In this document: positions 438-22,574 of the stretch, piece by piece
How positions within the stretch are numbered: the first letter of the stretch is position 1
Layout: each line of letters starts with the position of its first letter
Made by a program: the position numbers and the translations under genes
Source: Hominicoprocola fusiformis
GTDB lineage: Bacteria; Bacillota; Clostridia; Oscillospirales; Oscillospiraceae
Reading direction: 5' to 3'
NCBI GenBank assembly: GCA_040095065.1
Contig: JBBNGO010000039.1
Span: forward strand, 1-24,729
DNA: 24,729 nucleotides
Notes under the pieces: generated by a model
What the model saw: only the letters and a program-made list of their open reading frames with translations
The model's database searches: none
Told to the model about the DNA's origin: nothing

Positions 438-500
438 TTTCTCTGGGAGGGTTTAAGGGAGGGGTATCTCTTTTTGAAAAGAGATACCCCTCCCTTTTTT
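438..500 (+). repeat. Copy B of the same element. Its hairpin forms the terminator listed next.
   Basis: Same alignment as above. It contains the direct repeat GGGAGGG-TTTAA-GGGAGGGG ahead of the hairpin. Confidence 0.4.
457..500 (+). terminator. Rho-independent terminator
   Basis: An ~18-bp perfect stem, GGGAGGGGTATCTCTTTT (457-474) paired with AAAAGAGATACCCCTCCC (477-494), with a tight loop, followed by TTTTTT (495-500). Confidence 0.8.
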
Positions 501-503
501 ACT

Positions 504-528
504 GCCGCGCGGTGCGCGGCATTTTTTT
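504..528 (+). terminator. Second tandem rho-independent terminator
   Basis: Stem GCCGCGC (504-510), loop GGT, stem GCGCGGC (514-520), then A and TTTTTTT (522-528). Confidence 0.6.
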
Positions 529-548: not shown

Positions 549-621
549 GTGCATACGACTGTGCAACAAAACGGGTGCGGCGGGGTTCGGGTGAAAAGAG
601 AAAACAAAATGGGGGGACACG

Positions 622-936
622 ATGGAGAAAAAGGAGCTGGGGCGCGAGGATGTGATCGAGGCGCTCAAGAAGATCGCGTTCGGACGGGTGAACCGGGGCG
701 TGGAGCTGACATATCTGAGCGAGCCGACGGCGGAGCTCATCCGAAAAATGGACTTGTCGGCGGTGGCGGAATTCAAGAGAAACGCCAACGGGACGGTGGA
801 GGTCAAGTTCGTCGACCGGGTGAAGGCGCTGAGCGCGCTTTACGAGATGCTGGGGGCGGGGGACGCGAACGAGGCGGCGGAGTTCTTGGAGGCGCTGGAG
901 CAGGCGGGAGAGGAGAGAGATGATTGGCGGCCGTGA
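622..936 (+). CDS. Small terminase-like protein (Terminase_2/P27-type C-terminal region only, 104 aa)
   Basis: Segment VIEALKKIAFGRV...VEVKFVDRVKALSALYEMLG resembles the post-HTH oligomerisation part of P27-type TerS (..ELAKIAF....KL.DKLKALELLGKHLG). An in-frame TGA at 592-594 with no alternative start before 622 rules out a longer N-terminus. RBS GGGGGGA at 611-617. Positioned directly before TerL. Confidence 0.65.
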   Translation: MEKKELGREDVIEALKKIAFGRVNRGVELTYLSEPTAELIRKMDLSAVAEFKRNANGTVEVKFVDRVKALSALYEMLGAGDANEAAEFLEALEQAGEERDDWRP

Positions 937-2186
937 AGCAGTTTTCCACCAAGCAGAAGACGGCGATGACCTGGTGGGCGAACCCCAAGTACAAAGAGTA
1001 CGACGCGATCATCTGCGACGGGGCGGTGCGAAGCGGGAAGACGCTGTCGATGGGGATGGGCTTTTTCCTGTGGGCGATGCGGCGCTTTAGCGGCGAGCAA
1101 TTTGCACTGTGCGGGAAGACGATCGTGTCGCTGCGGCGAAATGTGCTGCACGAGATCTTGCCGAAGGTGACGGCGCTGGGCTTTCACTGCGAGGAGAAGC
1201 GGAGCGAGAATTTAGTGATCGTGCGAAGCGGAGGGCGGGAGAACCGCTTTTACCTCTTCGGCGGATACGACGAGGGGAGCGCGGCGCTCATCCAGGGCGT
1301 GACGCTGGCGGGGGTGCTGTTCGACGAGGCGGCGCTGATGCCGCGGTCATTTGTGGAGCAGGCGAGCGCGCGATGCAGCATATCGGGCAGCAAGCTGTGG
1401 TTCAACTGCAACCCCGAGGGGCCAATGCACTGGTTCTACCGCGAGTGGATCCTGCGCGCGGAGGAGCGCGGGGCGCTGTATCTGCACTTTACGATGGACG
1501 ACAATCCGTCGCTCTCGCCGCGCATTCGGGCGCGGTACGAAAAGGCATACAGCGGGACATTTTACCGGCGGTTCATCCTGGGCGAGTGGACGGCGGCGAA
1601 GGGGCTCATCTATGACTTCTTTACGCCGCAGGAGTATTGCGCTCGTGTGCCGGAAAAGCCGTGGGAGCGGGCGAGGATCTCCATCGACTATGGGACGGTG
1701 AATCCGACGAGTTTTGGCCTGTGGGCGCTCAAGGACGGCGTGTGGTACCGGGCGAGGGAGTATTACTTCGATTCGCGCAGAGAGGGGCAGCAGAAGACAG
1801 ACGCGGAGTATGTGGCGGACCTTAAAAAGTTCGCAGCGGGGGAGACGGTGGAAAAGGTAATCGTCGACCCGTCGGCGGCGAGCTTTATCGAGGCGCTGCG
1901 GCGCGAGGGCTTCCCCGTGAGCAAGGCGGACAACGATGTGGCGGACGGCATCCGCGTGACGGCGAACCTATTGAAGCAGCGAAAGATCGTGATCTGCGAG
2001 GGCTGCGAGAGCTGCCTTGCCGAGATCGCGGCGTACTGCTGGGAGGATGGCGGAACGGGAAGAGACCGGCCGAAAAAGGAGAGAGATCACGCGATGGATG
2101 AGATGCGGTATTTTGCCGTGTCGATCGCGAAAAAGGAACGCGGAGGCGGCATTGCGATGCGCGCGGTGGAGCGCGCGGCGCGATGA
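924..2186 (+). CDS. Large terminase subunit (PBSX/XtmB-type)
   Basis: Walker A GAVRSGKT, Walker B VLFDEAA, and nuclease-domain acidic motifs ISIDYG, VIVDPSAASF and HAMDEMRY. The ORF track uses a TTG start at 924 (RBS GGAGAGGAGAG at 907-917); ATG at 966 is the alternative. Overlaps terS by 13 nt. Confidence 0.9.
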   Translation: MAAVKQFSTKQKTAMTWWANPKYKEYDAIICDGAVRSGKTLSMGMGFFLWAMRRFSGEQFALCGKTIVSLRRNVLHEILPKVTALGFHCEEKRSENLVIVRSGGRENRFYLFGGYDEGSAALIQGVTLAGVLFDEAALMPRSFVEQASARCSISGSKLWFNCNPEGPMHWFYREWILRAEERGALYLHFTMDDNPSLSPRIRARYEKAYSGTFYRRFILGEWTAAKGLIYDFFTPQEYCARVPEKPWERARISIDYGTVNPTSFGLWALKDGVWYRAREYYFDSRREGQQKTDAEYVADLKKFAAGETVEKVIVDPSAASFIEALRREGFPVSKADNDVADGIRVTANLLKQRKIVICEGCESCLAEIAAYCWEDGGTGRDRPKKERDHAMDEMRYFAVSIAKKERGGGIAMRAVERAAR

Positions 2187-2211
2187 ACAAAACGGAAAAG
2201 GAGAGAACAGG

Positions 2212-3378
2212 ATGAAAGTACCCTGGCAGAAGGAGAGAAGCACGGGCGGCGAGACCGCCGTGCAGCTGCGCGGCGGCGGACGCAGTACATTCGGACGGCT
2301 TGAGAGCTATGTGCCGCTGCTGGATGGGGAGACAGCGCTTTACCGCGAGGTGCGCGAGGCGGTGCCGGTGGTGGACGCGGCCATCTGCAAGCTGATCCGG
2401 CTGACGGGCGGCGTGCGCGTGGCATGCGGCAACGAGCGGGCGGAGCAGGGCTTGCAGCGCTTTTTGCGCGAGGTGCCGGTGGGCAGAGGGCAGAGGGGCA
2501 TCAACGCCTTTTTGGACTGTTACCTCGATTCGCTTTTGACCTGCGGGCGCGCGGTGGGCGAGATCGTACCGGACGCGGAGGGGCGCGAGATCGCGGCGGT
2601 GCTGTGCGCGGACGTTTCGCAGGTGGAGGTGCGCGAGGGGGACAATCCGCTCGAATTCTGCCTGTGCGGTGTGGATGGCGGCGGGCGCAGCGTGCCGCTC
2701 GAGTATCAGGACCTACTGCTCTTTACACCGCTCAACCCCGAAGCGGGGCACCCTTACGGCGTTTCGATGCTGCGCTCGATGCCGTACTTAACGGGGCTGC
2801 TGCTGAAAATTTACGACGCGATGGGAAAGAATTGGGATCGCTGCGGCAATGTGCGCTTCGCGGTGACGTATAGGCCGCAGGACGGCGAGCTCGACCGCGG
2901 GGCGGCACAGGAGCGCGCCGAGCAGATCGCCGAGGAATGGTCGCGGGCGATGCAGGAGGGCAGAAACGGCAGCGTGCGCGACTTTGTATCGGTGGGCGAT
3001 GTATCGATCAAGGCCATCGGCGCGGACAACCAGATCTTGGACAGCGAGACGCCGGTACGGCAGATCTTAGAGCAGCTGGTGGCGAAGACGGGGCTGCCGC
3101 CGTTTATGCTGGGGCTGAGCTGGTCGTCGACCGAGCGGATGAGCTCGCAGCAGGCGGATATGCTGACAAGCGAGATCACGGCGCTGCGGCGCACGCTCGA
3201 ACCGGTCATCGACCGCATCTGCACGCTGTGGCTTAGGATGCACGGCTACGGCTGCCGTGCGGTGGTGGACTGGGAGGACATCAACCTGCAGGATGAGGTG
3301 GAGGAGGCCAAAGCGGCACTCTACTTGCAGCAGGCGCGAAAGCTCAGGCAGGAAAATGATGAAGCGGAGGGGAAATGA
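2212..3378 (+). CDS. Portal protein (388 aa)
   Basis: Positioned after TerL, with the size of an HK97/XkdE-type portal. ATG at 2212 is preceded by AAAGGAGAG. The 2017 start in the ORF track overlaps terL and is rejected. Confidence 0.8.
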   Translation: MKVPWQKERSTGGETAVQLRGGGRSTFGRLESYVPLLDGETALYREVREAVPVVDAAICKLIRLTGGVRVACGNERAEQGLQRFLREVPVGRGQRGINAFLDCYLDSLLTCGRAVGEIVPDAEGREIAAVLCADVSQVEVREGDNPLEFCLCGVDGGGRSVPLEYQDLLLFTPLNPEAGHPYGVSMLRSMPYLTGLLLKIYDAMGKNWDRCGNVRFAVTYRPQDGELDRGAAQERAEQIAEEWSRAMQEGRNGSVRDFVSVGDVSIKAIGADNQILDSETPVRQILEQLVAKTGLPPFMLGLSWSSTERMSSQQADMLTSEITALRRTLEPVIDRICTLWLRMHGYGCRAVVDWEDINLQDEVEEAKAALYLQQARKLRQENDEAEGK

Positions 3379-4313
3379 GCATGGAAGTGAGAAAAGAGAG
3401 CAATGGGCTCAAAAACAGCATGGTGACGCGCGAGGAACTGGCAATCATCAATCAGTTCACGAAGCGCGCGCTCAAAGAGGACGAGGTCTACACCTTTGCC
3501 GTGCGGCTGTGCGACAACGAGGTGGACCGGGACGGCGAGCGCTTTCCGCGCGCGACGCTCGAAGAGCTCGCGGAGCTGTTTGTGGGCAAAAGCGGCATCT
3601 TTGACCACGAGTGGACGGCGAAGGGGCAGGCGGCGCGCATCTACCGCACGGAGATCGTGGAGGAAGAGGGCGTTTGCTCGCAGGGCGAGGGGCGCTGCTA
3701 TCTCAAGGGCTATGCGTATATGCTGCGCGGCGGCGAGAATGATGCGCTGATCGCGCAGATCGAGGGCGGTATCAAAAAGGAAGTGAGCGTGGGGTGCAGC
3801 GTGGAAAGGTGCGTGTGCTCCATCTGTGGTGAGGACATCAACACCTGCGCGCACAAAAAGGGCGAAGTGTACGGCGGCAAGGTGTGCTGCGCGGAGCTTG
3901 TGAACGCGCAGGACGCGTATGAGTGGAGCTTTGTAGCGGTGCCGGCGCAGCCGAGAGCGGGCGTTTTAAAGCGCTGCGGCGGAGAGGACGCGGGCACGCT
4001 CAAGACGTTCGTCAAGCGGCGCGGGTCGAGAGCGAACCAGAGGGAGCTTGAAAGCCTTGAAAAGCAGGCGGAGGTCGGTAAGCGCTACTTGAGTGAGCTG
4101 CGCGGCGAGGTGAAGCGGCTGATGCTCGTGTGCGAGCAGGAGGCGGATGGCGAGGCCATTGAAAAGCTCGCGGAAAAGCTCGACGAGAGCGAGCTCAAGG
4201 AGATGGAGAAGCTGTATCGCGGGAAGATGGCGAAAAAGCTGGGGCTGCGCACGCAGCTCACTTACGGCGAGAAGACGAAAGCGGCGGAGGACGAGAGCGA
4301 CTTTCGCGTGTGA
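3375..4313 (+). CDS. Prohead serine protease (S78-like) fused to a C-terminal coiled-coil scaffold-like domain
   Basis: GIFDHEW and IEGGIKKEVSVGCS resemble the His and Ser motifs of HK97-family prohead proteases. There is a Cys cluster, CSVERCVCSICGEDINTCAH..GKVCC. The K/E/L-rich C-terminal half is typical of scaffolds. ATGA overlap with the portal stop. Confidence 0.7.
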   Translation: MSMEVRKESNGLKNSMVTREELAIINQFTKRALKEDEVYTFAVRLCDNEVDRDGERFPRATLEELAELFVGKSGIFDHEWTAKGQAARIYRTEIVEEEGVCSQGEGRCYLKGYAYMLRGGENDALIAQIEGGIKKEVSVGCSVERCVCSICGEDINTCAHKKGEVYGGKVCCAELVNAQDAYEWSFVAVPAQPRAGVLKRCGGEDAGTLKTFVKRRGSRANQRELESLEKQAEVGKRYLSELRGEVKRLMLVCEQEADGEAIEKLAEKLDESELKEMEKLYRGKMAKKLGLRTQLTYGEKTKAAEDESDFRV

Positions 4314-4371
4314 AAAGGAACAAAAAGCAGCGGCGCTTTTTGGATAGAACAACAGATCAAGGAGGAACGGT

Positions 4372-4725
4372 ATGAGCATTTCTTATGAGGGCATCGGCGA
4401 GTGGTGTGCAACGTTTGTTTGCGGCGCGGTCAGCGAGGGCGACATTGTGAAGGTGAGCGCGAACGGCACGGTGGGCAAGTGCACGGCGGGCGACGGCTTC
4501 TGCGGCGTGGTGCGCGCCGTCGCGCATGACGGCAAGGCCTGCACGGTGCAGCTCGGCGGCCTTGCGAGCGTGAAGTACAGCGGCACGGCGCCTGCGGTAG
4601 GCTTTAGCGAGCTGGTGGCGGACGGCTCGGGCGGCGTGAGCAAGCCGGGCGAGAACCAGAACGGCAGCAGCTATCTTGTGCTGAGCGTGGACAGCGCGGC
4701 GAACAAGGCTGTCATCAAGCTTTAA
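4372..4725 (+). CDS. Small Gly/Val-rich beta protein. Possible DUF2190-like head decoration or cement protein.
   Basis: 117 aa with RBS AAGGAGGA, located between the scaffold and the major capsid gene. The pattern of G..V..G repeats recalls DUF2190. Confidence 0.45.
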   Translation: MSISYEGIGEWCATFVCGAVSEGDIVKVSANGTVGKCTAGDGFCGVVRAVAHDGKACTVQLGGLASVKYSGTAPAVGFSELVADGSGGVSKPGENQNGSSYLVLSVDSAANKAVIKL

Positions 4726-4740
4726 GGAGGAGAAGGACAA

Positions 4741-5772
4741 ATGGCTTATCAGTATGAAAATGTGAAGCTCGAAAAGGGCATGTACGGTCAAAGCGGCAAG
4801 AGCTTTCTGAAGGTGCTCGAATCGCTCGACCCGAGCGAGAACTACAAGGGCACGGCGCTCGAGGGACTCGACGCCTTCCAGCGCCAGCTCAAGCGCTTTG
4901 ATATCCACGTTAAGGGCGCGGGCAGCGACATGGTGGAAAAGTTTTTCCACACGAGCGAATCGTCCGTGCTGTTCCCGGAGTTCGTCTCCCGCGTGGTGCG
5001 CCAGGGCATGGAAAGCGACATCCTGCCCGACATCACTGCGACCGTGACGAATTTTGACGGCATGGACTACCGCTCTATCGCGTCCGTTCCGACGGACGAC
5101 GACAAGGAGCTCAAGCGCGTGGAGGAGGGCGCGGGCATCCCGACGACCAGCATCCGCACGCAGGAAAACCTTGTGAAGCTCCACAAGCGCGGCAGAATGC
5201 TGGTCGCGTCCTATGAGGCGATCCGCTTCCAGCGACTGGACCTCTTCTCTGTGACGCTGCGCCAGATCGGCGCGTACATCGCGCGCATGCACTTAAAGGA
5301 CGCCATCGACGTTTTGATGAACGGCGACGGCAACAACAATGCGGCAACAAGCTATACCATCGGCGATGACGGCATCGGCGGCACGAAGGGCACGCTGAGC
5401 TATGACGCGCTGCTGGGCTTCTGGTCGCAGTTTGACCCCTATACGATGAACACGATGCTGATGGGCAGCGACATGATGCTCGCGATGCTCAAGCTCTCGG
5501 AGTTCCAGAACCCGCTGACGGGCCTCAACTTCCAGGGCACGGGTACGCTCGCCACCCCGCTGGGTGCGAAGCTCCTGCGCACGAGCGCAATGCCCGCGGG
5601 CAAGATCATCGGCCTTGATAAGAACTATGCGCTCGAGCGCATCTGTGGCAGCGAGGTGCTGGTCGAGTACGACAAGCTCATCGACCGCCAGCTGGAGCGC
5701 GCGGCCATCACGAGCATTTCCGGCTTTGCAAAGCCGTATCAGGAGGCCTCGAAGGTGCTGTCCTTACAGTAA
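4741..5772 (+). CDS. Major capsid protein (HK97-fold, XkdG-like)
   Basis: 343 aa with a strong RBS (AAGGAGGAGAAGG) in the canonical position after protease and scaffold. Confidence 0.8.
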   Translation: MAYQYENVKLEKGMYGQSGKSFLKVLESLDPSENYKGTALEGLDAFQRQLKRFDIHVKGAGSDMVEKFFHTSESSVLFPEFVSRVVRQGMESDILPDITATVTNFDGMDYRSIASVPTDDDKELKRVEEGAGIPTTSIRTQENLVKLHKRGRMLVASYEAIRFQRLDLFSVTLRQIGAYIARMHLKDAIDVLMNGDGNNNAATSYTIGDDGIGGTKGTLSYDALLGFWSQFDPYTMNTMLMGSDMMLAMLKLSEFQNPLTGLNFQGTGTLATPLGAKLLRTSAMPAGKIIGLDKNYALERICGSEVLVEYDKLIDRQLERAAITSISGFAKPYQEASKVLSLQ

Positions 5773-5792: not shown

Positions 5793-6173
5793 ATGGCGGA
5801 GAGCATGAGCGAGCAGATCTTTTCGATCGCGTGTGCGCTGAGCAAGGCGGACGAGAGCGAGAAGAGCATGCTCCGAATGATCTGCACGGCGCAGGAGGAG
5901 AGCCTTGTGCGCGCGCTGAAAGAGGGCGTCGCCAAGGAGGACTGCGAGAGCGCGTTTATCTGCGCGGCGTCGTGGTTGGCGGCGGCCGCGCTGGAGAGCG
6001 CGAGAGCGGGCGGGGAGGAGTTCTCCTCCCTGCGCGCGGGAGATCTCACGGTGACGAAACGTTCGTCCGATGAGGGGAGCAAAAGGCTGTCGCTGCTGCG
6101 TGAGCAGGCGTGGGCGCTGATGCGTCCGTATACGACGGACGGCGGGTTCTGCTTCCGCGGGGTGGAAGCATGA
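5793..6173 (+). CDS. Head-tail connector or adaptor protein (XkdH position)
   Basis: 126 aa with RBS AAGGAGGAAG, first of three small coupled ORFs between capsid and sheath. Confidence 0.55.
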   Translation: MAESMSEQIFSIACALSKADESEKSMLRMICTAQEESLVRALKEGVAKEDCESAFICAASWLAAAALESARAGGEEFSSLRAGDLTVTKRSSDEGSKRLSLLREQAWALMRPYTTDGGFCFRGVEA

Positions 6174-6493
6174 ATCGGGCACTGAGTGAGGCGTTCGCGC
6201 GCTATGGCATGAGCGTTTTGGTGCTGCACGGCGGAGAGACGGCGGAGACGAAGGCGTTTTTGCAGCTTGTGAAGAAGGAGAACGGCGAGGAGCCGTTCTC
6301 TGTGACGGCGCTGGGAGCGGTCGACGAGCAGTGTTGGCGGTATCTGGGCCCGGCGGACGTTGCGGTCGCAATGGGCGACTTTGTGCAGTGCGGAGAGAAG
6401 CGGTATGTCGTGCGCGCGGCGGGGCCGTTTTACGTGGGCGAGGAGATCGCCTACTACTGGGCGATGCTGCATCCGAAGGAGGAAGAGGCATGA
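6170..6493 (+). CDS. Head closure or connector protein (XkdI position)
   Basis: ATGA overlap with the previous gene at 6170-6173. The 6110 start in the ORF track is rejected. Confidence 0.55.
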   Translation: MNRALSEAFARYGMSVLVLHGGETAETKAFLQLVKKENGEEPFSVTALGAVDEQCWRYLGPADVAVAMGDFVQCGEKRYVVRAAGPFYVGEEIAYYWAMLHPKEEEA

Positions 6494-6999
6494 CGGCGGT
6501 CGGACAGGTGAAGCGCGCGGTGGCCGCGGCGATCGAGGCGGCGGGCTGCGCGGCGATCGAGAGTTACAGCGAAGAACAGCTCAAGCGGTATGCGACCGCG
6601 GTGGCGGCGGTCGGCACGAAGGAGACGGTGATCGAGGAGAGCGGCGCGATCGAATATCTGGGAGAAAAGGTCGACGAGGCGACGCAGGAGACGGTATCTG
6701 TCTACGGGAGAAAAATGCTGCTGACGCTGCTGACCGAGGTGTATGCGCCGAGGACGATGGGTGCGGCGGGCTGCGAGGAAGCGGCGGAGACGATCACACA
6801 GGCGATGATGACGGCGCTGCCGGAGGGGCTGAAGCTCAGAACATTGCAGTGGGGCAAGACCGGCTGGGACAAGACGACGGGCATGTTCCGGCTGGACGCG
6901 AGCGCGAAATATGCGGCGTACTTTGTCGCGGAGGCGGCGGAGGATGGGACGGTGTTTACCGATTTTGTATTGAAAGGCACGGTGAAAGAACGTGAATAG
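6490..6999 (+). CDS. Tail completion or terminator-type connector protein (XkdJ position)
   Basis: ATGA overlap at 6490-6493. 169 aa, directly before the sheath gene. Confidence 0.5.
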   Translation: MTAVGQVKRAVAAAIEAAGCAAIESYSEEQLKRYATAVAAVGTKETVIEESGAIEYLGEKVDEATQETVSVYGRKMLLTLLTEVYAPRTMGAAGCEEAAETITQAMMTALPEGLKLRTLQWGKTGWDKTTGMFRLDASAKYAAYFVAEAAEDGTVFTDFVLKGTVKERE

Positions 7000-8065
7000 T
7001 ACGATCCATGAGCGGCCGGGCGTGTATTCGTCCTACGACGCATCGAGCGTGGTGAGCGCGAGCGCTGCGGCGAAGACGATCGGCGCGGCAGCGGTGGCGA
7101 CGAAGGGGACGGCCAATAAGGTGGAGCTCATCACCTCGTATGAAGAGGGAAAGAGTGTATTCGGGGAGGATGCGAGCGGCGTGTATGGCATGAGCACGCT
7201 GCTCAAATTCCTCTTCGCCAACGGCGCGGGTGCAGTGAAGGCTGTGGCCGTGGGCAAGGACGAGAGTGAAGAGAAGGACTACGCGAGCGCGTTTGCGGCG
7301 CTCTCTGATGAGGAAGATGTCGGCGTGATGGTGTGCGACAGCGCGGCGCAGAGCGTGCATCTGCTCCTCAAAACGGCGGCAGAGGATGCCTCGGCGGCGA
7401 GACGCGAGCGCATCGCGGTCATCGGTGGTTCGGAAGAGACGGTCGCGCAGATGGTGAACCGCGCGAAGGCTGTCAACAGCGAGCGCGTAGTGCTGGTGGG
7501 ACCGGATATCGCATCGGACGACGGCGGTACGATGAGCGCGGTGTTTGCCGCGGCGGCGGTGGCGGCGGTGATCGCGGGAAACACCGACCCGTCCGTGCCT
7601 ATCAACGGCGCGGAGCTGACGCTTTTCGGCGCGGCGGGCAAGAGACTGAGTGACAATGAGATCGACCAGCTGGTGCGCGGCGGCGTGACGCCGATCGAGA
7701 CGGTGGGCGGCGTTTCCTCGCCGGTGCGAGGTATCACGACAAGGACTTCGAGCGGCGGGGCGGCGGACACGACGTGGCGCGAGCTGACGACCATTTTGAT
7801 CGTGGATGAGGTCATCCCGACGATCCGCAGCGCGCTGCGTACGCGCTTTGCCAGAAGCAAGAACACCGCGCAGAGCCGCGGGGCCATCCGCTCGCAGGTG
7901 GTGCTGGAGCTCGAGGGGATGAAGAGCCGCGAGATCGTGGACAGCTACGGCGAGGTGCTGGTGAGTGCGCTCAAGAGCGACCCGACGGTGTGCCTGGTGG
8001 AATTCAGCTTTACGGTGGCGCACGGGCTGAACCGCATCTATCTGACGGCGCACATCACGGTGTAA
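6992..8065 (+). CDS. Contractile tail sheath protein (XkdK-like, compact at 357 aa)
   Basis: The N-terminal HERPGVY motif is typical of sheath proteins, and the gene is followed by a tube gene. GTG start overlaps the upstream gene by 8 nt. Confidence 0.8.
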   Translation: MNSTIHERPGVYSSYDASSVVSASAAAKTIGAAAVATKGTANKVELITSYEEGKSVFGEDASGVYGMSTLLKFLFANGAGAVKAVAVGKDESEEKDYASAFAALSDEEDVGVMVCDSAAQSVHLLLKTAAEDASAARRERIAVIGGSEETVAQMVNRAKAVNSERVVLVGPDIASDDGGTMSAVFAAAAVAAVIAGNTDPSVPINGAELTLFGAAGKRLSDNEIDQLVRGGVTPIETVGGVSSPVRGITTRTSSGGAADTTWRELTTILIVDEVIPTIRSALRTRFARSKNTAQSRGAIRSQVVLELEGMKSREIVDSYGEVLVSALKSDPTVCLVEFSFTVAHGLNRIYLTAHITV

Positions 8066-8076
8066 GGAGGAAAAAT

Positions 8077-8466
8077 ATGGCGAATACGGTATTGCCGCTG
8101 AGCAGCGACATCTATCTCGAAGTCGACGGCAAAAAGGTGGCGGTGGTGCAGAGCTACACGACGAGAGCGACGCGCACGAGCCGCGAGATCGAGGCCTTTG
8201 GCGAAAACGAGCCGGTGGCGACGATCGCGGGCGCGAACAAGTACACGCTGGAGTTGAGCCGCCTGTACGCGACGGATGAGGCCATCAGCGACGGCATCAA
8301 CTTCTATGATCTGAACGACTTTTCGCTTGTGATCTGCAAGCCGGACAAGCGCATCATCTACTCGCAGTGCCGCTGGAGCAGCATTGAAGAGGCGGGCAAG
8401 CTCGGCGACCCGGCGGCGGAGAAGGTGACGATCATCGCGCGTAAGCGCATGGAGATCGCAAGCTGA
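8077..8466 (+). CDS. Tail tube protein (XkdM-like)
   Basis: 129 aa with a perfect RBS, AAGGAGG at 8064-8070, positioned after the sheath gene. Confidence 0.75.
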   Translation: MANTVLPLSSDIYLEVDGKKVAVVQSYTTRATRTSREIEAFGENEPVATIAGANKYTLELSRLYATDEAISDGINFYDLNDFSLVICKPDKRIIYSQCRWSSIEEAGKLGDPAAEKVTIIARKRMEIAS

Positions 8467-8849
8467 TGGACGAGCTTCTGCTGAACTTTTTGGGGCGCGA
8501 GCGGGAGAAGACGGTGCGCATCGGGGAGAGAACGTGCGCGATGCGGCTGCTTTCGGCCCGCGAGACGCTCTCGCTGCGGCGCGAGATCGCGCAGCTTGAC
8601 TGCGCCGACGAAGAAGAGCGTGCGTTGCGCGCGAACGCGGCGCTGCTCAAAAGAAGCCTGACGGAGGGCGGAGAGGCGGCCTTTGCAAGCGCGGAGGACG
8701 TTGAAAATGCACTGAGCGTCGGCGAGATCAACGAGCTGGTGCGGTGCTACGCGCTGCTTGACGGGGCGGAGAACCCGTCGAGCGAGGACGGGCGCGAGAA
8801 GGTGGAAGCGCTAAAAAAAGCATGGAGCACGCGCCCTACGAACGGCTGA
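8466..8849 (+). CDS. Tail assembly chaperone, short (G-like, XkdN position)
   Basis: 127 aa with a TGATG junction to the tube gene. The slippery site lies near its 3' end. Confidence 0.75.
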   Translation: MDELLLNFLGREREKTVRIGERTCAMRLLSARETLSLRREIAQLDCADEEERALRANAALLKRSLTEGGEAAFASAEDVENALSVGEINELVRCYALLDGAENPSSEDGREKVEALKKAWSTRPTNG

Positions 8850-9115
8850 AATGGCGCGTGCTCCGATATGCCGGCGCGCTGCCGAGCGAAAAGCGCGCGC
8901 AGGAGATGACGGACGCGGACTACCTCTATTGCCTTGTGCACGAGATGCTCGACCGCGAGGAGGCGATGGAGCGGCTGTGCCCCGAGTGCAGGACGCGCGC
9001 GGAGGAGGCACGGTGCAGCATTTGCGGCGCAAAGCTCGGCGAAACCGCAGGCGGCGGCAACGCGAGCTTTGATATGGCGCGCTTTATCCGCATGAAGGAG
9101 GGGCGAAAACCTTGA
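8466..9115 (+). CDS. Tail assembly chaperone, -1 frameshift fusion (GT-like). The frame changes at 8813-8819.
   Basis: The zero frame reads CTA AAA AAA GCA. A slip on A_AAA_AAA continues in the -1 frame as AGC ATG GAG... through ORF 8822..9115. That frame is open for at least 10 codons (back to 8786) before the site. Confidence 0.65.
8813..8864 (+). promoter_or_regulatory. Programmed -1 ribosomal frameshift signal (slippery heptamer plus stimulatory hairpin)
   Basis: A7 run at 8813-8819 in the A_AAA_AAA register. After a 4-nt spacer comes a perfect 12-bp GC-rich stem, GGAGCACGCGCC (8824-8835) paired with GGCGCGTGCTCC (8853-8864), with a 17-nt loop. Confidence 0.7.
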
Positions 9116-9663
9116 ATTACATCGAATGGGCGCTGCAAAGAGGCGCAGAGCTGTGGCGCGCGCGGGAAGAGGCGCTGAAAAAGCGCCTCTCCCTTGTGCC
9201 GGAGGGGACGGCGCAGAAAAAGGCGGCGGAGGCGCAGCTTTCGGAAGAGGAAGCCGCGGCGCAGGATGCGGAGATGAGCGGCGGCGCGGAAACTGTGGCA
9301 GAAGCAGCGGATGATCCGGTGGAGACGGCGGCGGTGCGGCTTGGGCAAAAGCTCGGGCTGGGTGCGACGCAAGAAGATGATGGCTCGGAGAGGGAGACGA
9401 CGTTTTCTGCCGATCTGGCGAGCACTGCGGCGGCGAACGCTGCGCTTCTGCGCGCGAGGGAGGCCGAGAGCGCGGACAATGCGTCCGACTGGATAAGAAA
9501 GCTCCTGAGCGCGGACGGCCGCGACGGGGCGAGCGCGGCGGCAGCGCGAGGGAAAAATGACTTTTCACTCGCGCAGGAGCAGGAGGTGCGCGAGACGGAG
9601 TCGTTTTCGCTGAGCTTAGAGCGCGACGCACGCCGATACGACGGCGGATTTTTATTTTACTGA
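9112..9663 (+). CDS. Protein in the tape-measure position (183 aa, Ala/Glu-rich, low complexity). Putative minimal tape measure.
   Basis: TTG start coupled to the upstream stop (TTGA at 9112-9115) with RBS GAAGGAGGGG. It lies between the chaperone pair and the LysM/XkdP-like gene, which is the XkdO slot. Confidence 0.45.
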   Translation: MNYIEWALQRGAELWRAREEALKKRLSLVPEGTAQKKAAEAQLSEEEAAAQDAEMSGGAETVAEAADDPVETAAVRLGQKLGLGATQEDDGSERETTFSADLASTAAANAALLRAREAESADNASDWIRKLLSADGRDGASAAAARGKNDFSLAQEQEVRETESFSLSLERDARRYDGGFLFY

Positions 9664-9678: not shown

Positions 9679-10242
9679 ATGAACCTTGCACCGATGCGAT
9701 ACAAGGATTATGTCTGGCCGCACAACCCGGAGACCTACACCATCTCGTTCAAGCGGCAGGTGGCAGTGGCGAAGGTGCCGTTCGGGCGCTACGGGATGCA
9801 GGATCTCGGAATGAGCTACCGCGTGATGGAGGGCGAAGGCGTTTTTGCGGGGAAGGGCGCCTACGACGAGTTCAAAAAGCTGGCATCGGTCTTCTATCAG
9901 GGCGGGCCGGGGCTGCTGATCCATCCGGTGTGGCAGGCGTCGCAGGCGTACTTTGTGTTGCTGGAACTGGCGCAGCAGCCGCTTGAAAACTACGTGCGCT
10001 ACCGCTTTGCCTTCTGGGAGACGAGCCCACTCGATACGTCGCTCATCCGCGTGAGCGGCGGGAGCGGCAATGCGGGCACGGGGACGAAAACGGCGAGCTC
10101 GTACTACACGGTCAAGCGCGGCGACACGCTGTGGGGCATCGCGAACACGTATGGCGTGACGCTGACGGCGCTTTTGAACGTGAATCCGCAGATCAAAAAT
10201 CCCAACAGGATCGCCGTGGGAGAGCGGGTGACGCTGCCGTGA
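9679..10242 (+). CDS. LysM-domain tail or baseplate protein (XkdP-like)
   Basis: The C-terminal segment YYTVKRGDTLWGIANTYGVTLTALLNVNPQIKNPNRIAVGERVTLP is a canonical LysM motif. Confidence 0.85.
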   Translation: MNLAPMRYKDYVWPHNPETYTISFKRQVAVAKVPFGRYGMQDLGMSYRVMEGEGVFAGKGAYDEFKKLASVFYQGGPGLLIHPVWQASQAYFVLLELAQQPLENYVRYRFAFWETSPLDTSLIRVSGGSGNAGTGTKTASSYYTVKRGDTLWGIANTYGVTLTALLNVNPQIKNPNRIAVGERVTLP

Positions 10243-11180
10243 TGAAGGGGTATCTGACGACGTGCGACGGTGCGCAGTTTGAGCTGCCGACGCTGCTGAA
10301 GTGGGAATTTTCCTACACGGGAAGCGTGCCGTGCGACAGCTTTACGCTCAAGTGCGCGTATGAGCCCGCGATGGCGGAGGTGCTGCGGCGGGCGGTGCGC
10401 TTCACGGCGAGAGAGGACGGCACGGTCGAATTTGCGGGCGTTGTGGACGAGTGCGGCGTGACATGCGATGAAAAGGGCTTGCAGCTTGAGGTGAGCGGAC
10501 GCGGCATGGCGGCGCTGCTGCTCGACAATGAGGCAGAGAGCGTGAGCTATCAGTGGGCGACGATGGAGGAGATCCTCAAAAACCATGTGACGCCGTACGG
10601 CATCGTGTGCACGGGCTATGACGCGGTGACGGCTGCGGCACGGTACCGCGTGGCGAACGGGTCGAGCCAGTGGAAGGCGCTGAACGATTTTGCAGCGCTG
10701 CACGGAGGGATCGCACCGTATTTCGACAAGACGGGCGCGCTGGAGGTGAAGAAAAACCGCAAAGCCGCGCGCGTGAGCATTGACGCGAAAACGCCGGTGA
10801 CGGCGCTTTCCTACTGCGATAAGCGCTACGGCGTGATCGCCGAGGCACTGGTGGTGGACAGCAAGGCGGGCGTGAAGCAGAGCGTGAAAAACGAGGCGTT
10901 CTGTGCTCGCGGCGGCACGAGCAGGCGCGTATTTTACGTGCCGGCGCGCAGCGGCACGCAGGCAATGCGCTACACGGGGGAGTATCAGATCGCAAAGTCG
11001 AAGGAGGGCGCGGAGACGCTGCGCGTGACGATCGCGGGGCGGTTCACCGCCGCGCCGGGGGATATCGCGGCGGTGAGCGGGACGAAGATCGGCATCGCAG
11101 GCCATTTCCGCGTGATCGAGTGCGTGAGGCGCTTTGGCGAGAGCGGAGAGGCGTGTGAAGTGACGATGCAGAGGGAGTGA
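10242..11180 (+). CDS. Baseplate hub or late-control-D-like protein (XkdQ-like)
   Basis: 312 aa with a TGATG junction at 10240-10244. Size and synteny match XkdQ. The 10131 start in the ORF track is rejected. Confidence 0.6.
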   Translation: MKGYLTTCDGAQFELPTLLKWEFSYTGSVPCDSFTLKCAYEPAMAEVLRRAVRFTAREDGTVEFAGVVDECGVTCDEKGLQLEVSGRGMAALLLDNEAESVSYQWATMEEILKNHVTPYGIVCTGYDAVTAAARYRVANGSSQWKALNDFAALHGGIAPYFDKTGALEVKKNRKAARVSIDAKTPVTALSYCDKRYGVIAEALVVDSKAGVKQSVKNEAFCARGGTSRRVFYVPARSGTQAMRYTGEYQIAKSKEGAETLRVTIAGRFTAAPGDIAAVSGTKIGIAGHFRVIECVRRFGESGEACEVTMQRE

Positions 11181-11186
11181 GAGACG

Positions 11187-11567
11187 ATGTGGCTATCGAG
11201 AAAGCTAAGCCAGTATGAGATGCAGGACGTGGCCTCGGCACAGGACGGAACGGTGACGGTCGAGGGCGGTGAGCTGGCGGTATTCAGCAGCGGGGAAAAG
11301 CGCGAGGTGAAGACCGCCGCGCCCGGCGGCTATGAGTGGCAGCCGAAAAAGGGCGAGGATGTGCTGGTGGTGCGCGGCGGGACCTTTGGCGAGGAGGCCT
11401 ACGCCGTGGGCGCGGTGGGGCAGAGCGCGGACGACCTGGCACCCGGCGAGGTGCGCATTCGCTCCGCCGCAGCGGGGACGGAGATCGTGCTGCGCAACAA
11501 CGGGCGCATCGACATCAACGGGCTCCTTTTCATCAACGGGATGCCGTATCTGGGAATGGGAGGCTGA
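11187..11567 (+). CDS. Baseplate spike or plug protein (XkdR/gpV-like)
   Basis: 126 aa in the syntenic position. Confidence 0.5.
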   Translation: MWLSRKLSQYEMQDVASAQDGTVTVEGGELAVFSSGEKREVKTAAPGGYEWQPKKGEDVLVVRGGTFGEEAYAVGAVGQSADDLAPGEVRIRSAAAGTEIVLRNNGRIDINGLLFINGMPYLGMGG

Positions 11568-11569
11568 GG

Positions 11570-11923
11570 ATGGAGCTGAAGATCAAAGACCGCGATTATG
11601 TGGCCGACGGCGCGGGCGGGCTCGTGTGCGTGAGCGGCTGGGACGAGCTGCTCGAACGCGTGCTCTTTAAGCTGAGTGTGCGGCGCGGAAGCTTTGCGCT
11701 CGCACCGGAGCTTGGCAGCAAGCTGCACCTTTTATGGCGGGAAAAGGGCGAGAGCCGCGCGACGGCGGCAAAGCAATACGTGGCCGAGGCACTGGCGGAT
11801 GAAAAGGGTCTGAGCGTGACGGGCATGGAGCTTGCGGAAAAGAATGGATTTTTGGAGCTGCGCGTGCTGCTGCGCTATGAGAACGAAACGGGCGAGGCGG
11901 TCGTGACGATAGGGGGAGAGTGA
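11570..11923 (+). CDS. Baseplate wedge protein (XkdS/gp25/gpW-like)
   Basis: 117 aa, ATG at 11570 with RBS GGGAGG, directly before the baseplate J gene. Confidence 0.55.
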   Translation: MELKIKDRDYVADGAGGLVCVSGWDELLERVLFKLSVRRGSFALAPELGSKLHLLWREKGESRATAAKQYVAEALADEKGLSVTGMELAEKNGFLELRVLLRYENETGEAVVTIGGE

Positions 11924-11926
11924 AGA

Positions 11927-12994
11927 ATGGAAGAGCTGAACGCGATCTACGAGCGGATGCGCGCGATCTTTGCCGAGGAGGCGGGCTTTGTGCCGAACGA
12001 CGGCTGCGACGCGATGGTGCGCCTCTATGCGCTGGCGAGCGAGGTACAGTCGCTTCTGGCGCAGGCGGACTGGGTGCTGGATCAGAGCTTTCCGCAGACG
12101 GCGGTGGGGCAGTATCTCGACTATCACGCCGAGACGCGGGCGCTGACGCGCCTTCCCGCGGCGAAGGCGGCGGGTGTGCTGCGCTTTTCCGCGCCGTCGG
12201 CGGCGGTGACGGATTATGAGATCGACGCGGGAAGTGTGGCGATGACGAGCGGCGGCGTGCGCTTTGAGACGACGGAGAAGGCGACGCTTGCAAAGGGCGA
12301 AACGTATGTGGATGTGCCGGCGAGCGCCGTGGAGGCGGGGGCGAGCGGCAACGCCATCGCGGGCGCGATCCATCTGATGTCCGTGTATCCGGTGGGCATC
12401 ACGCAGTGCACAAATCCTGAGGCGTTTTCCGGCGGCAGCGACGAGGAGAGCGACGAAAAGCTGCGCGAGCGCGTACTAGCAAGCTACAAGCGCCTGCCGA
12501 ACGGTGCGAACGCGGCGTTTTACGAGCAGGAGGCGATGAGCTTTCCGAACGTGGCGGCGGCGAAAGCGGTCGGCCGCGCCCGCGGCATCGGCACGGTGGA
12601 TGTGTATGTTTCGACGCACGCGGGCGCGCCGGATGAGAAGCTGCTCGGCGAGATCGAGGCGGTCTTGCAGAAAAAGCGCGAGATCGCGGTGGATGTGGAG
12701 GTCAAGGCGCCGACAGAGAAGACCGTCAACATGAGCGCGGAGCTGACGGCGGAGCAGGGCTGGACGATACAGGAGATCACCGATGCGGCGACGGCGGCGC
12801 TGCAGGCGTACTTTACCGGTGAACGGCTGGGCGAGGCGGTGTATACGGCGAAGCTCGCGAGCATCCTCTACGGTGTGGAGGGCGTGAAGAACTGTCACCT
12901 GCTCACGCCGGACGAGGATGTGAGCGTGAGCGCGACGGAGCTACCGGTGCTCGGCACGGTGACGATCACGGAGATCGGGGCGGGTGAGGCATGA
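11927..12994 (+). CDS. Baseplate J-like protein (XkdT-like)
   Basis: 355 aa. Size and position are typical of the Baseplate_J family. Confidence 0.7.
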   Translation: MEELNAIYERMRAIFAEEAGFVPNDGCDAMVRLYALASEVQSLLAQADWVLDQSFPQTAVGQYLDYHAETRALTRLPAAKAAGVLRFSAPSAAVTDYEIDAGSVAMTSGGVRFETTEKATLAKGETYVDVPASAVEAGASGNAIAGAIHLMSVYPVGITQCTNPEAFSGGSDEESDEKLRERVLASYKRLPNGANAAFYEQEAMSFPNVAAAKAVGRARGIGTVDVYVSTHAGAPDEKLLGEIEAVLQKKREIAVDVEVKAPTEKTVNMSAELTAEQGWTIQEITDAATAALQAYFTGERLGEAVYTAKLASILYGVEGVKNCHLLTPDEDVSVSATELPVLGTVTITEIGAGEA

Positions 12995-13569
12995 CATATT
13001 ATGACTATCTCTGCCGCCTTTTGGAGCCGATGCGCGTTTATCGTACCGAGCGCGGCACGCTGAGCGGCGGAGAGCTGTACGCAGCGGGCGCGGCGCTGGA
13101 TGAAGCGGACGGCGCGATGGAATACGCCGAGCAGGAGGGCCTTTTGCAGACGGCGGAGGGCGAGGGCCTTGCAAGGCGGGAGAAGCTCTTTTCCCGCTGC
13201 CCGGTCAGCGTTTCGACTGCGCTGCGGCGCGAGGCCATCGCGGCGCTCGCGCGCATCAACGCCGACAGCTTCACGCTGGATGCGATCAACTCGACGCTCA
13301 GCGGCTGCGGCATCAAGGCGCTGGCGGAGGAGACGGAGAAAAAAGGAACGGTCAAGGTCTGGTTCCCGAACACCGTGGGCGTGCCGGATGAGTTTTCGCA
13401 GGTGGAGAGCATCATCCTCGATATCATCCCGTGCCATTTGCTGGTGGAGTTCTACTTCCGGTATCTGACGTGGCTCGAGTGCGAGAGAGTGGGATTCACG
13501 TGGCAGAGTGTGGAGGACGCGCACCACACGTGGGAGAGCTTTGAAAAGGCGGTGCCGGAGGAAGAATGA
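12991..13569 (+). CDS. Baseplate or tail protein (XkdU/gpI-like)
   Basis: 192 aa, ATGA-coupled to the J-like gene in the syntenic position. Confidence 0.5.
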   Translation: MTYYDYLCRLLEPMRVYRTERGTLSGGELYAAGAALDEADGAMEYAEQEGLLQTAEGEGLARREKLFSRCPVSVSTALRREAIAALARINADSFTLDAINSTLSGCGIKALAEETEKKGTVKVWFPNTVGVPDEFSQVESIILDIIPCHLLVEFYFRYLTWLECERVGFTWQSVEDAHHTWESFEKAVPEEE

Positions 13570-13862
13570 CGGAACAGGAGATCTCGGTCAAGCTGACGGA
13601 GACCGAGCAGCGCGCCAAGTCGAACACGCACCGCATCGAAAAGCTGGAACAGCAGCAGAAGGACCTGAATAAGCTGGTAACGGCAGTGGAGGTGCTCGCC
13701 TCGCGCGAAAAGGGCGTGGAGACGGACGTCAAGGAAATCAAGGCGGACGTGAAGACCATCACGCAGAAGGGCGGAAAGCGCTGGGATGCGATGATCGACC
13801 GCGTGCTGTACGTGCTCATCGGGGCGGCAATCTCCCTGCTGATGACAGGGGGGAGCTTATGA
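13566..13862 (+). CDS. XhlA-like membrane protein of the lysis module
   Basis: N-terminal coiled coil (EQRAKSNTHRIEKLEQQQKDLNKL) plus one C-terminal transmembrane helix (VLYVLIGAAISLLMTGG). ATGA-coupled. Confidence 0.6.
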   Translation: MTEQEISVKLTETEQRAKSNTHRIEKLEQQQKDLNKLVTAVEVLASREKGVETDVKEIKADVKTITQKGGKRWDAMIDRVLYVLIGAAISLLMTGGSL

Positions 13863-14131
13863 AAAGGAAACGCACGAGCTTTTCCAAACTGTTGCTGCTG
13901 CTCGAAAGCGCGATCGTGCTCTATACGACGTATCAGGGCTTCGGGATCGCGAAGCTCGCGATCGAACTGGGCTTTATGGGCACGCTTCCGTGGATTGCGA
14001 CGATGGTGACGGCGGCGTGGGGAGCTTACGGCACGAGCGCCGCGTGCTACTATGCCAAGGCAAAGGCGGAAAATACGGCGGGCGGCGTGACGTATGAAAC
14101 GGTGTGCCGCGGGCAGGACTGCGAGGGGTGA
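13859..14131 (+). CDS. Putative holin or lysis membrane protein (two predicted TM helices)
   Basis: Basic N-terminus MKRKRTS, with hydrophobic segments LLLLLESAIVLYTTY and LPWIATMVTAAWGAYG. ATGA-coupled. Confidence 0.5.
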   Translation: MKRKRTSFSKLLLLLESAIVLYTTYQGFGIAKLAIELGFMGTLPWIATMVTAAWGAYGTSAACYYAKAKAENTAGGVTYETVCRGQDCEG

Positions 14132-14137
14132 GAGAGC

Positions 14138-14329
14138 ATGGAGCTTTTGAAAAAGAGACTGGCGAATCTTTTGAGCGTGAAGAGCATCGTGACGCTGTGC
14201 CTGACGATCACGTTCTGTGTGCTGACGGTGCAGGCAAAGGTGACGCAGGAGTTTAACACGGCGTATCTCATGGTGATCGCGTTTTATTTCGGCACGCAGA
14301 ACGGCAAAAACGCGCAGGAGGAAACGTAA
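14138..14329 (+). CDS. Putative holin (63 aa, two TM helices, charged C-terminus)
   Basis: Hydrophobic segments IVTLCLTITFCVLTV and YLMVIAFYFG with the tail NGKNAQEET. Directly abuts the endolysin start (TAAATG). Confidence 0.6.
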   Translation: MELLKKRLANLLSVKSIVTLCLTITFCVLTVQAKVTQEFNTAYLMVIAFYFGTQNGKNAQEET

Positions 14330-14980
14330 ATGCGCCACAGCAGGAGCATCAGCGACCTGCGCGCGGACGTGGCGGAGAATTGCCGGACGCTGCTTATGCT
14401 CGCTGAGCGCGAGGGGTTGAGCGTTCTGGTGACGGAGACGGTGCGCGATGCGGAGTATCAGCGGATGCTCGCCGAGAAGGGCTACGCGGCCAAAGGAGCG
14501 GTGACGCCGTCGTTCCACGCCGAGCATGCAGGATTGGCCTTTGACATTTGCAAAAATGAGGTGGGGCACGAGTATGACGATCCCGCGTTTTTTGCGCGGA
14601 TGGGGGAGATCGGAAAGCGAGTCGGATTTTCCTGGGGAGGAGACTGGGGGAGCTTTCCCGACCGGCCGCATTTTCAGTGGGACGCGGGCGGAGTGTACAC
14701 GAGCGCGATGATCCGCGCGAAGCGCTATCCGCCGCCCATGCCGCGCTATGAGGAGGAAGAGATGACGCAGCAGCAGTTTGACGCGATGATGGAAAACTAC
14801 CTGAAAAGACTGGCGCAGCAGACGCCGGCGTCCTGGAGCGCGGAGGCGCGCGCCTGGGCGGAGAAAAACGGCCTGATCGCGGGTGATGAGGCGGGGAACA
14901 AACAGTACCGCAGCTTTTTGACGCGCGAGCAGATGGCCGTGCTGATGCAGCGCTACGACGCGATGCAGCGAGGCAAATGA
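14330..14980 (+). CDS. Endolysin: peptidase M15 (VanY/L-Ala-D-Glu peptidase-type) with a C-terminal SLH-like wall-binding segment
   Basis: Zn-ligand pattern SFHAEHAGLAFD ... DRPHFQW. The C-terminal WSAEARAWAEKNGLIAGDEAGNKQYRSFLTREQMAVLMQR resembles one SLH repeat. Confidence 0.8.
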   Translation: MRHSRSISDLRADVAENCRTLLMLAEREGLSVLVTETVRDAEYQRMLAEKGYAAKGAVTPSFHAEHAGLAFDICKNEVGHEYDDPAFFARMGEIGKRVGFSWGGDWGSFPDRPHFQWDAGGVYTSAMIRAKRYPPPMPRYEEEEMTQQQFDAMMENYLKRLAQQTPASWSAEARAWAEKNGLIAGDEAGNKQYRSFLTREQMAVLMQRYDAMQRGK

Positions 14981-14997
14981 CAGAATGGCAAATGAAA

Positions 14998-15029
14998 GCG
15001 CCGGAGGGGAGCCCCTCCGGTGCTTTTTT
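14998..15029 (+). terminator. Rho-independent terminator ending the phage-like cluster
   Basis: GCGCCGGAGGGG-AG-CCCCTCCGGTGC hairpin followed by TTTTTT (15024-15029), 18 nt after the endolysin stop. Confidence 0.8.
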
Positions 15030-15047
15030 GCGCTAATGAGCTGGAAA

Positions 15048-15067
15048 CTTGCAAGAATTCTTGCAAG
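15048..15067. promoter_or_regulatory. Perfect 20-bp palindrome CTTGCAAGAATTCTTGCAAG. Candidate regulator binding site upstream of the gct promoter.
   Basis: The sequence equals its own reverse complement and contains two copies of the 8-bp palindrome CTTGCAAG. It sits about 105 bp upstream of the -35 element. Confidence 0.35.
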
Positions 15068-15170
15068 ATCTGGAGATTTTGGAGAAGAAGACAAAAATGA
15101 CTACACGGAAACGACAAAAAGCGAGAACAAAATTTGTTCAGTTTTTTTTCACTTTCCATGCGGGTTTTCA

Positions 15171-15199
15171 TTGATTTTGCGAGGAAGTTCCTCTATAAT
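15171..15199 (+). promoter_or_regulatory. Sigma-A type promoter of the hydroxyglutarate operon
   Basis: TTGATT (15171-15176), a 17-nt spacer, then TATAAT (15194-15199), in an AT-rich region. It leaves a ~105-nt leader before gctA. Confidence 0.7.
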
Positions 15200-15311
15200 T
15201 TACACTGAAGCCTGTATGAGCATCTTTCAGCGGATTTTTGACGGAATCCATGCAAGCGGAAAGAGCTCTTTGGCAATAAAAATGTTTATCAAAATCAGGG
15301 AGGGTTTTATC

Positions 15312-16409: not shown

Positions 16410-16430
16410 GGTTTGGGAGGCTAAATAGAA

Positions 16431-17237: not shown

Positions 17238-17269
17238 TTTGTTATTTCGATTAAGAAGGAGAACTTAAT

Positions 17270-19039: not shown

Positions 19040-19063
19040 AATATCACAACAATGCTTTTCTCG

Positions 19064-19094
19064 GCGCTGCGCGGAGGCAAGAACCGCGCAGCGC
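19064..19094 (+). other. Intercistronic hairpin between gcdA and hgdC with no U-tract
   Basis: Perfect 11-bp stem, GCGCTGCGCGG (19064-19074) paired with CCGCGCAGCGC (19084-19094), with a 9-nt loop. Confidence 0.5.
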
Positions 19095-19118
19095 ACGGGA
19101 AGGCAAACGGAGAGTACA

Positions 19119-19907: not shown

Positions 19908-19959
19908 TCCCCATCATTCGTTATCAAATTTTTCTATATCGCATTAGGAGGAATCAATC

Positions 19960-21405: not shown

Positions 21406-21419
21406 GGAGGCGTGCAAAA

Positions 21420-22565: not shown

Positions 22566-22574
22566 GGAAAGTCT

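Follow-up and report, generated by a model that had tools for sequence, protein, structure and literature searches.

All known small terminase subunits (TerS) of gene transfer agents (GTAs), that of RcGTA included, lack a DNA-binding domain, and random packaging through a TerS lacking the helix-turn-helix (HTH) domain has been proposed for RcGTA gp1 as well as for GTAs generally (PMC11841831). FpGTA from Faecalibacterium prausnitzii (Borodovich et al. 2026) forms particles with host DNA and has a putative TerS without an obvious DNA-binding domain; it is podovirus-like, occupies two loci or operons (10.5 and 5.5 kb) and is reported in Faecalibacterium only (PMC12946183). PBSX is a defective prophage and GTA-like phibacin that packages host DNA at random (PMC7667829). 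GTA-like packaging of chromosomal DNA was also seen in the gut Oscillospiraceae Onthomonas and Pelethomonas by sequencing virus-like particles (VLPs) with long reads and by transductomics, and the responsible clusters were not found (PMC12946183; bioRxiv 10.64898/2026.07.08.737213). Here, we analyze a stretch of 24,729 nucleotides from the Oscillospiraceae species Hominicoprocola fusiformis (contig JBBNGO010000039.1, positions 1-24,729; hereafter the window). The window carries a compact 14.4-kb cluster of head, short contractile tail and lysis genes (622-14980), of which terS is the first gene.

The TerS of this cluster lacks the N-terminal HTH domain. Residues 2-79 align to positions 58-130 of the 141 positions of the Pfam profile PF03592 (Terminase_2) and leave positions 1-57 uncovered. 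Six short forms from different lineages are likewise confined to profile positions 58-130, compared to positions 2-133 for long forms of 144-158 aa from sister lineages (38-48 bits, maximum 48.5). Aligned to the long forms, the window TerS misses ~52-57 residues and resumes at (V)RREDVI. The missing segment reads ..AFCRxYLxTMDPxxAAxxxGxxDGxAxL....LERMR.. in the long forms. The search for homologues among 5.8 billion proteins returned 104 homologues, and genuine full-length relatives share ~40-54% identity with the window protein (P0093, P0097 and P0101; loci L021, L023, L026 and L028). Given the full-length relatives in sister lineages, the short form is a domain deletion. The long-form profile matches the solved SF6 TerS (3zqp) through its N-terminal part (E=5e-4). 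An AlphaFold model of the long TerS of L021 shows a confident four-helix N-terminal domain, with a predicted local distance difference test score (pLDDT) of 80-89, and its top matches among the predicted viral structures of BFVD are all small terminases. In the PDB, Foldseek retrieved no significant match to the long-form model (E>2). When PDB sequences were searched with the profile of the short forms, only spurious matches to designed armadillo repeats appeared. The HTH is also not encoded as a separate half of a split gene in the window or in the inspected flanks of relatives. Searches by tblastn with five HTH segments had best matches of E=3.5 in the window and E=0.026 in the 10 kb on either side of 28 short-form relatives, none of them convincing, and this explanation was rejected. 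The original prediction had described the 104-aa product as lacking the HTH region and proposed a PF03592 profile alignment as a check; both the profile coverage and the search for a second half bear it out.

The coordinates and frame had been given correctly as well. Nine codons (AAA GAG AAA ACA AAA TGG GGG GAC ACG) separate the in-frame TGA at 592-594 from ATG 622, with no ATG, GTG or TTG among them, and the gene runs from ATG 622 to the stop TGA at 934-936. This stop overlaps GTG 933 of the large terminase gene terL as GTGA (933-936), and terS lies directly upstream of terL in all 33 loci. The product is acidic (isoelectric point 4.8, net charge -6) and is assigned by PHROGs to phrog_51, "terminase small subunit". 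The match to Terminase_2 is marginal if taken alone (E=1.1e-5, 26.5 bits vs. a gathering score of 26.1). The identity as TerS is secure because the gene adjoins and overlaps terL, long homologues at the same position score up to 48.5 bits, the long-form profile matches 3zqp and the long-form model finds TerS proteins in BFVD. The prediction had named the family as P27 or Terminase_2. Terminase_2 stands as the sole matching family and the name P27 has to be dropped, as nothing matched this separate TerS family (Terminase_4).

Close homologues of 146-168 aa were considered as HTH-bearing forms and rejected. Their extra N-termini translate terminator hairpins of the non-coding leader, or the calls run on into terL. 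Such read-through "TerS" entries in public sets (P0005, P0007, P0010, P0011 [UniRef A0A8S5UL15], P0016, P0018, P0038 and P0041) come from strains without the upstream in-frame stop and could mislead domain analyses.

The short form is common: ~28 of the 33 genomes that represent species have one, with a length of 91-109 aa and an identity as low as 40%. Among the 150 nearest clusters at 50% identity (drawn from 1.84 billion proteins), 84 are short without the HTH and ~27 carry it, with the remainder being read-through calls, chimeras or fragments. Hence, the short form predominates among the nearest relatives. One TerS cluster at 90% identity alone has 1,477 member sequences. In a phage collection searched in protein mode, the TerS core was found in no cultured phage and in four faecal-VLP contigs only. 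The ratio of nonsynonymous to synonymous substitution rates (dN/dS) of terS relative to the window is 0.17-0.47; the median across 135 pairs, 0.34, points to purifying selection on the short gene. In every lineage, the short form has retained its ribosome-binding site, its start codon and its terL overlap.

The leader and ribosome-binding site downstream of an operator-like motif are homologous between short and long forms. Retention of this promoter-proximal leader along with the ribosome-binding site and start codon makes it probable that the HTH was lost by an in-frame deletion inside the open reading frame (ORF) and not by 5' truncation with a new start. A neighbor-joining tree of TerL and the major head protein (MCP) needs a minimum of three (59% of 200 bootstraps) or four (41%) transitions between short and long forms, and never fewer. 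The tree of the TerS core, whose 102 columns are too short to fix the number of loss events alone, has at least two transitions in 95% of replicates. Short lineages also differ in their N-terminal peptides and leader lengths. We conclude that HTH loss happened more than once, and the short allele may have spread by recombination on some branches.

The cluster is present in 33 species-level Oscillospiraceae genomes, including Oscillibacter sp. ER4 and the isolate H. fusiformis CLA-AA-H269. At least 20 loci share an upstream DHFR-HAD flank, and gctA-gctB-gcdA-hgdCAB directly follow the endolysin gene in 12 species. In the window, this host operon for glutamate fermentation takes up positions 14985-24729 and comprises gctAB, gcdA and hgdCAB along with decarboxylase subunits. 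The record MT835769.1 is 95.9% identical and has a HAD hydrolase, then a DHFR gene, upstream of the cluster. Distant members, both long and short, are located at other sites, again by housekeeping genes (ArgRS, a two-component system, MnmA and FtsH), and the long forms L023 and L028 have host genes upstream. Apart from the portal gene (0.78), cluster genes have dN/dS values of 0.09-0.5. The synonymous divergence (dS) of the cluster is 0.5-0.7 vs. 0.53 for the flanking DHFR and 0.90 for HAD. The conserved flanks, the purifying selection and a dS similar to flanking host genes indicate a domesticated, vertically inherited element. The locus resembles a GTA in encoding only particle and lysis genes (in the window and within 10 kb on either side in relatives), in its fixed chromosomal site under purifying selection and vertical inheritance, and in a TerS without a DNA-binding domain, the last being a feature by which GTAs are recognized (PMC11841831). 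L021 has an HTH-bearing TerS in the same DHFR-HAD locus. As the HTH is kept there in a domesticated locus, domestication came first and HTH loss followed. Four contigs (L003, L017, L051 and L054) belong to bins of metagenome-assembled genomes named Alloprevotella sp. or Alistipes onderdonkii and hold the Oscillospiraceae locus with Clostridia-type flanks, which suggests mis-binning.

We suggest that terS encodes a functional HTH-less small terminase of a domesticated GTA-like or PBSX-like element, and that this protein starts headful packaging on any cellular DNA, which we consider probable. The N-terminal HTH has been removed from the small terminase, probably by in-frame internal deletion. 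The Terminase_2 core and the acidic C-terminal helix might form an oligomeric ring, and the same retained parts might contact and activate TerL, as in SF6/SPP1 G1P and RcGTA gp1. With the pac-recognizing domain gone, packaging would be initiated independently of sequence on any cellular DNA. Headful packaging would then fill particles with random chromosomal fragments rather than with the element itself. We infer, by analogy, that the protein forms a ring and activates TerL, that packaging starts irrespective of sequence and proceeds by headfuls, and that particles are produced. The GTA-like or PBSX-like nature of the element is well supported by the genomic context. The originally proposed GTA or generalized-packaging reading is accordingly upheld as far as gene content, host flanks, fixed site and selection are concerned, and its non-specific packaging is argued from analogy.

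Three database records provide a weak hint of host DNA packaging. MT835769.1 (L001) contains the cluster together with its host flanks (DHFR, HAD). MT836034.1 (L055) and MT835783.1 (L056) are plain bacterial chromosome with the repeat family of window 1-500 and carry genes for AlaRS, ComEC, DNA polymerase III delta, Glu/Gln-tRNA synthetase, an ABC transporter and a glycosyltransferase. All three are recorded as "Bacteriophage sp." though their DNA is bacterial chromosome, and they probably stem from DNase-treated faecal VLPs (presumed source PMC8361208). In addition, the window and L012 share 94-99% nucleotide identity over a tract of ~1.1 kb in the sheath gene (window ~6900-8000; L012 16366-17436), compared to 75-84% for the sister locus L008 and ~80% for the rest of the clusters. 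The tract indicates recent DNA exchange between species by recombination, which is compatible with transfer and no proof of it.

Several points weigh against a functional TerS that packages without specificity. The step from a missing HTH to non-specific packaging rests on analogy, and the N-terminal 26 residues of the window TerS keep several Lys/Arg that could still contact DNA. Ring formation gains nothing from the AlphaFold monomer of the short TerS, which is poor (pLDDT 50.4) and unfit for a fold search. VLP preparations can hold contaminating bacterial DNA. Regulators, tail fibers or a DNA-recognition partner could be encoded elsewhere in the genome, beyond the inspected 10 kb on either side. 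Finally, HTH loss is not needed for domestication, given the HTH in L021 and the long forms with host genes upstream in L023 and L028.

The most serious alternative concerns the purpose of the particle. The cluster might encode PBSX-type killer particles, in which host DNA is packaged as a by-product and not delivered, and an HTH-less TerS would merely fill heads for maturation. The contractile tail, the simple baseplate of Mu/PBSX type (LysM, gp44-like, gp46-like, baseplate J and gp48-like proteins) and the cassette of XhlA-like protein, holin and endolysin are all expected of such a particle, and PBSX packages random 13-kb host fragments in a bacteriocin-like manner (PMC7667829). A killer particle is less easily reconciled with the absence of Xre/Xpf-type regulators adjoining the cluster, a tape-measure-like ORF of just 183 aa and the lack of a tail-fiber gene. 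The highly similar 1.1-kb sheath tract in otherwise ~80% identical clusters, as a mark of interspecies DNA exchange, is compatible with transfer without proving it. We regard killer particles as somewhat unlikely. The data nonetheless fit a PBSX-type killer particle and a true GTA equally well, and the proposed reading of TerS is unchanged by the choice between them.

Packaging could also have remained sequence-specific, with pac read by basic residues of the N-terminal core, by TerL or by an unlinked protein, so that the element or a defined region is preferred. The TerS of phage P22, gp3, binds DNA without an N-terminal HTH. A strongly conserved motif is located just upstream of terS, in the region where pac sites of the SPP1 type lie. 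DsGTA and CcGTA show packaging peaks even though their TerS has no DNA-binding domain or none is known (PMC11841831). However, the motif is equally kept in HTH-bearing and HTH-less lineages and thus does not track the TerS domain. Its palindrome is typical of the site of a dimeric transcription factor. The cluster also has no replication module for self-amplification and no HTH segment nearby, and we consider retained specificity unlikely.

That the locus is a decaying prophage remnant, with the short terS a truncated and non-functional relic, seems very improbable. Replication, lysogeny and integration genes are indeed absent, and the TerS is shorter than its full-length relatives. Yet the structural and lysis ORFs are all intact and syntenic in >30 species, dN/dS is 0.09-0.5 (0.34 for terS and 0.78 for the portal gene), and every short-form lineage keeps the translation signals and the terL overlap. 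A relic would also not last undisrupted to a dS of ~0.6-1.2. The idea of a capsid-forming phage satellite, or of a part of a temperate phage with its other modules elsewhere, was raised for similar candidates, since satellites can take the form of compact clusters with terS, terL, capsid and lysis genes (bioRxiv 10.64898/2026.07.08.737213), and is hardly credible for a cluster that encodes its own complete contractile tail, lacks an integrase, att-type variable insertion and replication genes, and sits at a single fixed site with co-diverging flanks.

The features of the locus are collected in the table below. Head, tail, baseplate and lysis assignments are PHROG and Pfam matches at the family level, several of them under the Pfam cut-off.

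Table. Features of the cluster and its surroundings in the window of 24,729 nt.
Feature	Position	Strand	Remarks
Two tandem intrinsic terminators, each followed by a T-run	455..496, 503..521	+	Insulate the cluster from upstream transcription
Operator-like motif TGCATACGACTGTGCAACAAA	550..570	+	Palindrome GTTGCAC-N6-GTGCAAC in several relatives
In-frame TGA	592..594	+	Closes the terS frame upstream
Ribosome-binding site GGGGGGA (Shine-Dalgarno)	611..617	+	Kept in relatives
terS, short form, 104 aa	622..936	+	Terminase_2 core; predicted helix, beta-hairpin, helix and acidic C-terminal helix; no N-terminal HTH
terL, 417-420 aa	924..2186	+	Start candidates TTG 924 and GTG 933; N-terminal ATPase of T4 type
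Portal protein	2017..3378	+	True start probably near 2183
phrog_16951 protein	3375-4313	+	Head module (module span 3375..5772)
Scaffold-like protein	4372-4725	+	Head module
Major head protein (MCP)	4741-5772	+	Head module
Small ORFs, presumed head-tail connectors	5793..6999	+	No family match; placed between head and tail genes
Tail sheath	6992-8065	+	Contractile tail (span 6992..9663)
Tail tube	~8077-8466	+	Contractile tail
Two small chaperone-like ORFs	Between tube and 9112	+	
Tape-measure-like ORF, 183 aa	9112-9663	+	
DNA_circ_N+LysM protein	9679-10242	+	Simple baseplate of Mu/PBSX type (span 9679..13569)
gp44-like hub	10242-11180	+	Baseplate
gp46-like sheath initiator	11564-11923	+	Baseplate
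Baseplate J	11927-12994	+	Baseplate
gp48-like protein	12991-13569	+	Baseplate
XhlA-like protein	13566-13862	+	Lysis module (span 13566..14980); followed by a small ORF
Holin-like protein	14138-14329	+	Lysis module
Endolysin	14330-14980	+	Lysis module; end of the element
Glutaconate CoA-transferase, glutaconyl-CoA decarboxylase and 2-hydroxyglutaryl-CoA dehydratase operon	14985..24729	+	Flanking host genes, outside the element

The GC skew flips at ~15 kb. No integrase, repressor or replication genes adjoin the cluster in the window or within 10 kb on either side in relatives. A gene for a tail fiber or receptor-binding protein is absent after the gp48-like gene, where the lysis genes come next (window 12991-14140), and the fiber may be encoded elsewhere as in multi-locus GTAs. 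The ORF in tape-measure position is hypervariable, with 35-52% aa identity where neighboring genes have 75-99%, and has only 183 aa, which implies that the tail is very short and that evolution has been fast. The portal stands out with a median dN/dS of 0.78 vs. 0.09-0.5 elsewhere and has 59-71% identity where the MCP has 93-99%; part of this divergence may be saturation or alignment error.

Most loci nearer the window, with short and long forms alike, have a single copy of the operator-like motif, located 52-83 nt upstream of terS. The palindrome, GTTGCAC-N6-GTGCAAC(AAA), is also seen at L021 9753-9773 and L023 5632-5652. This palindrome is likely the regulatory site of the cluster and probably bound by an unlinked regulator. 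Neither a regulator gene in or adjoining the cluster nor a sigma-70 consensus in window 1-1000 was found. The palindrome was also considered as the lost target (pac) of TerS and rejected, being equally kept in HTH-less lineages. A second, perfect 20-bp palindrome (GCGCGCAAAATTTTGCGCGC) at 529-548, between the second terminator and the operator, is found only in the close relatives L001 and L003-L005. Further upstream, the spacer in window 1-500 is built of dispersed non-coding repeat modules (~1-257 and 308-498), including a perfect hairpin with 20-bp arms at 455-496. Copies of the modules with 70-86% identity lie at several sites of related genomes as well as on at least 13 faecal-VLP contigs (L001 2548-2860 and 3440-3744; L016 3160-3402; three sites in L055; L056 15925-16454). 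They may represent a family of repeats resembling miniature inverted-repeat transposable elements or carrying terminators. In related species, HAD and terS are only 150-220 nt apart. No known RNA was identified in the window by Rfam, whose matches in positions 1-700 were all sub-threshold and terminator-like.

A TerS without an HTH is already recognized as a hallmark of GTAs. The added interest of the locus is in the recurrent loss of the domain and in a possible link to packaging in Oscillospiraceae. The cluster is a candidate for the Oscillospiraceae GTA locus. We tentatively raise the possibility that the 14.4-kb cluster is the genetic basis of the reported packaging and that the family preserves a series of independent, post-domestication deletions of the TerS HTH. 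HTH-bearing and HTH-less sisters in homologous clusters, some of them at the same locus, constitute a natural comparative series. If the proposal is true, these natural alleles allow a direct test of whether loss of the TerS HTH turns pac-specific packaging promiscuous. The cluster is highly prevalent, is conserved in numerous species and is carried on contig JAJEPY010000005.1 of H. fusiformis CLA-AA-H269, an isolate in culture.

Among known systems, the element as a whole is most like PBSX of Bacillus subtilis. Both are chromosomal elements of Firmicutes, and both combine head and contractile tail with a Mu-like baseplate that includes LysM and with a cassette of XhlA-like protein, holin and lysin. 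The similarity is at the family level only, and the present cluster has neither xre/xpf-type regulators next to it nor a long tape measure or a tail fiber. PBSX has the xre repressor and the late sigma-like factor xpf upstream of terS, where no xre or xpf was found here; that position is instead occupied by terminators, beyond which come genes for a HAD hydrolase or for other housekeeping functions. FpGTA is likewise an element of gut Clostridia with a putative TerS without an obvious DNA-binding domain. It is set apart by its description from the present element, which is a single 14.4-kb locus of Oscillospiraceae with sheath and tube and thus is not FpGTA. At the level of the protein, SF6/SPP1 G1P (PDB 3zqp/3zqq) belongs to the same family (PF03592). 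The core of the window TerS corresponds to positions 58-130, and long forms match the N-terminal part of the SF6 protein. The window TerS differs from G1P by the absence of the entire HTH domain (profile positions 1-57), the part that reportedly recognizes pac in G1P, a finding attributed to Buttner et al. 2012. RcGTA gp1 shares with the window TerS the lack of the HTH and the position at the start of a chromosomal cluster that is inherited vertically and has structural genes only (PMC11841831). The present system belongs to a Clostridia lineage and not to the phylum of Rhodobacter capsulatus, the host of RcGTA. It has a contractile instead of a siphovirus-like tail and carries the lysis genes inside the cluster. 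In contrast to RcGTA, its TerS derives demonstrably from Terminase_2 (SF6/SPP1-type), and full-length sisters with the HTH persist in the element family.

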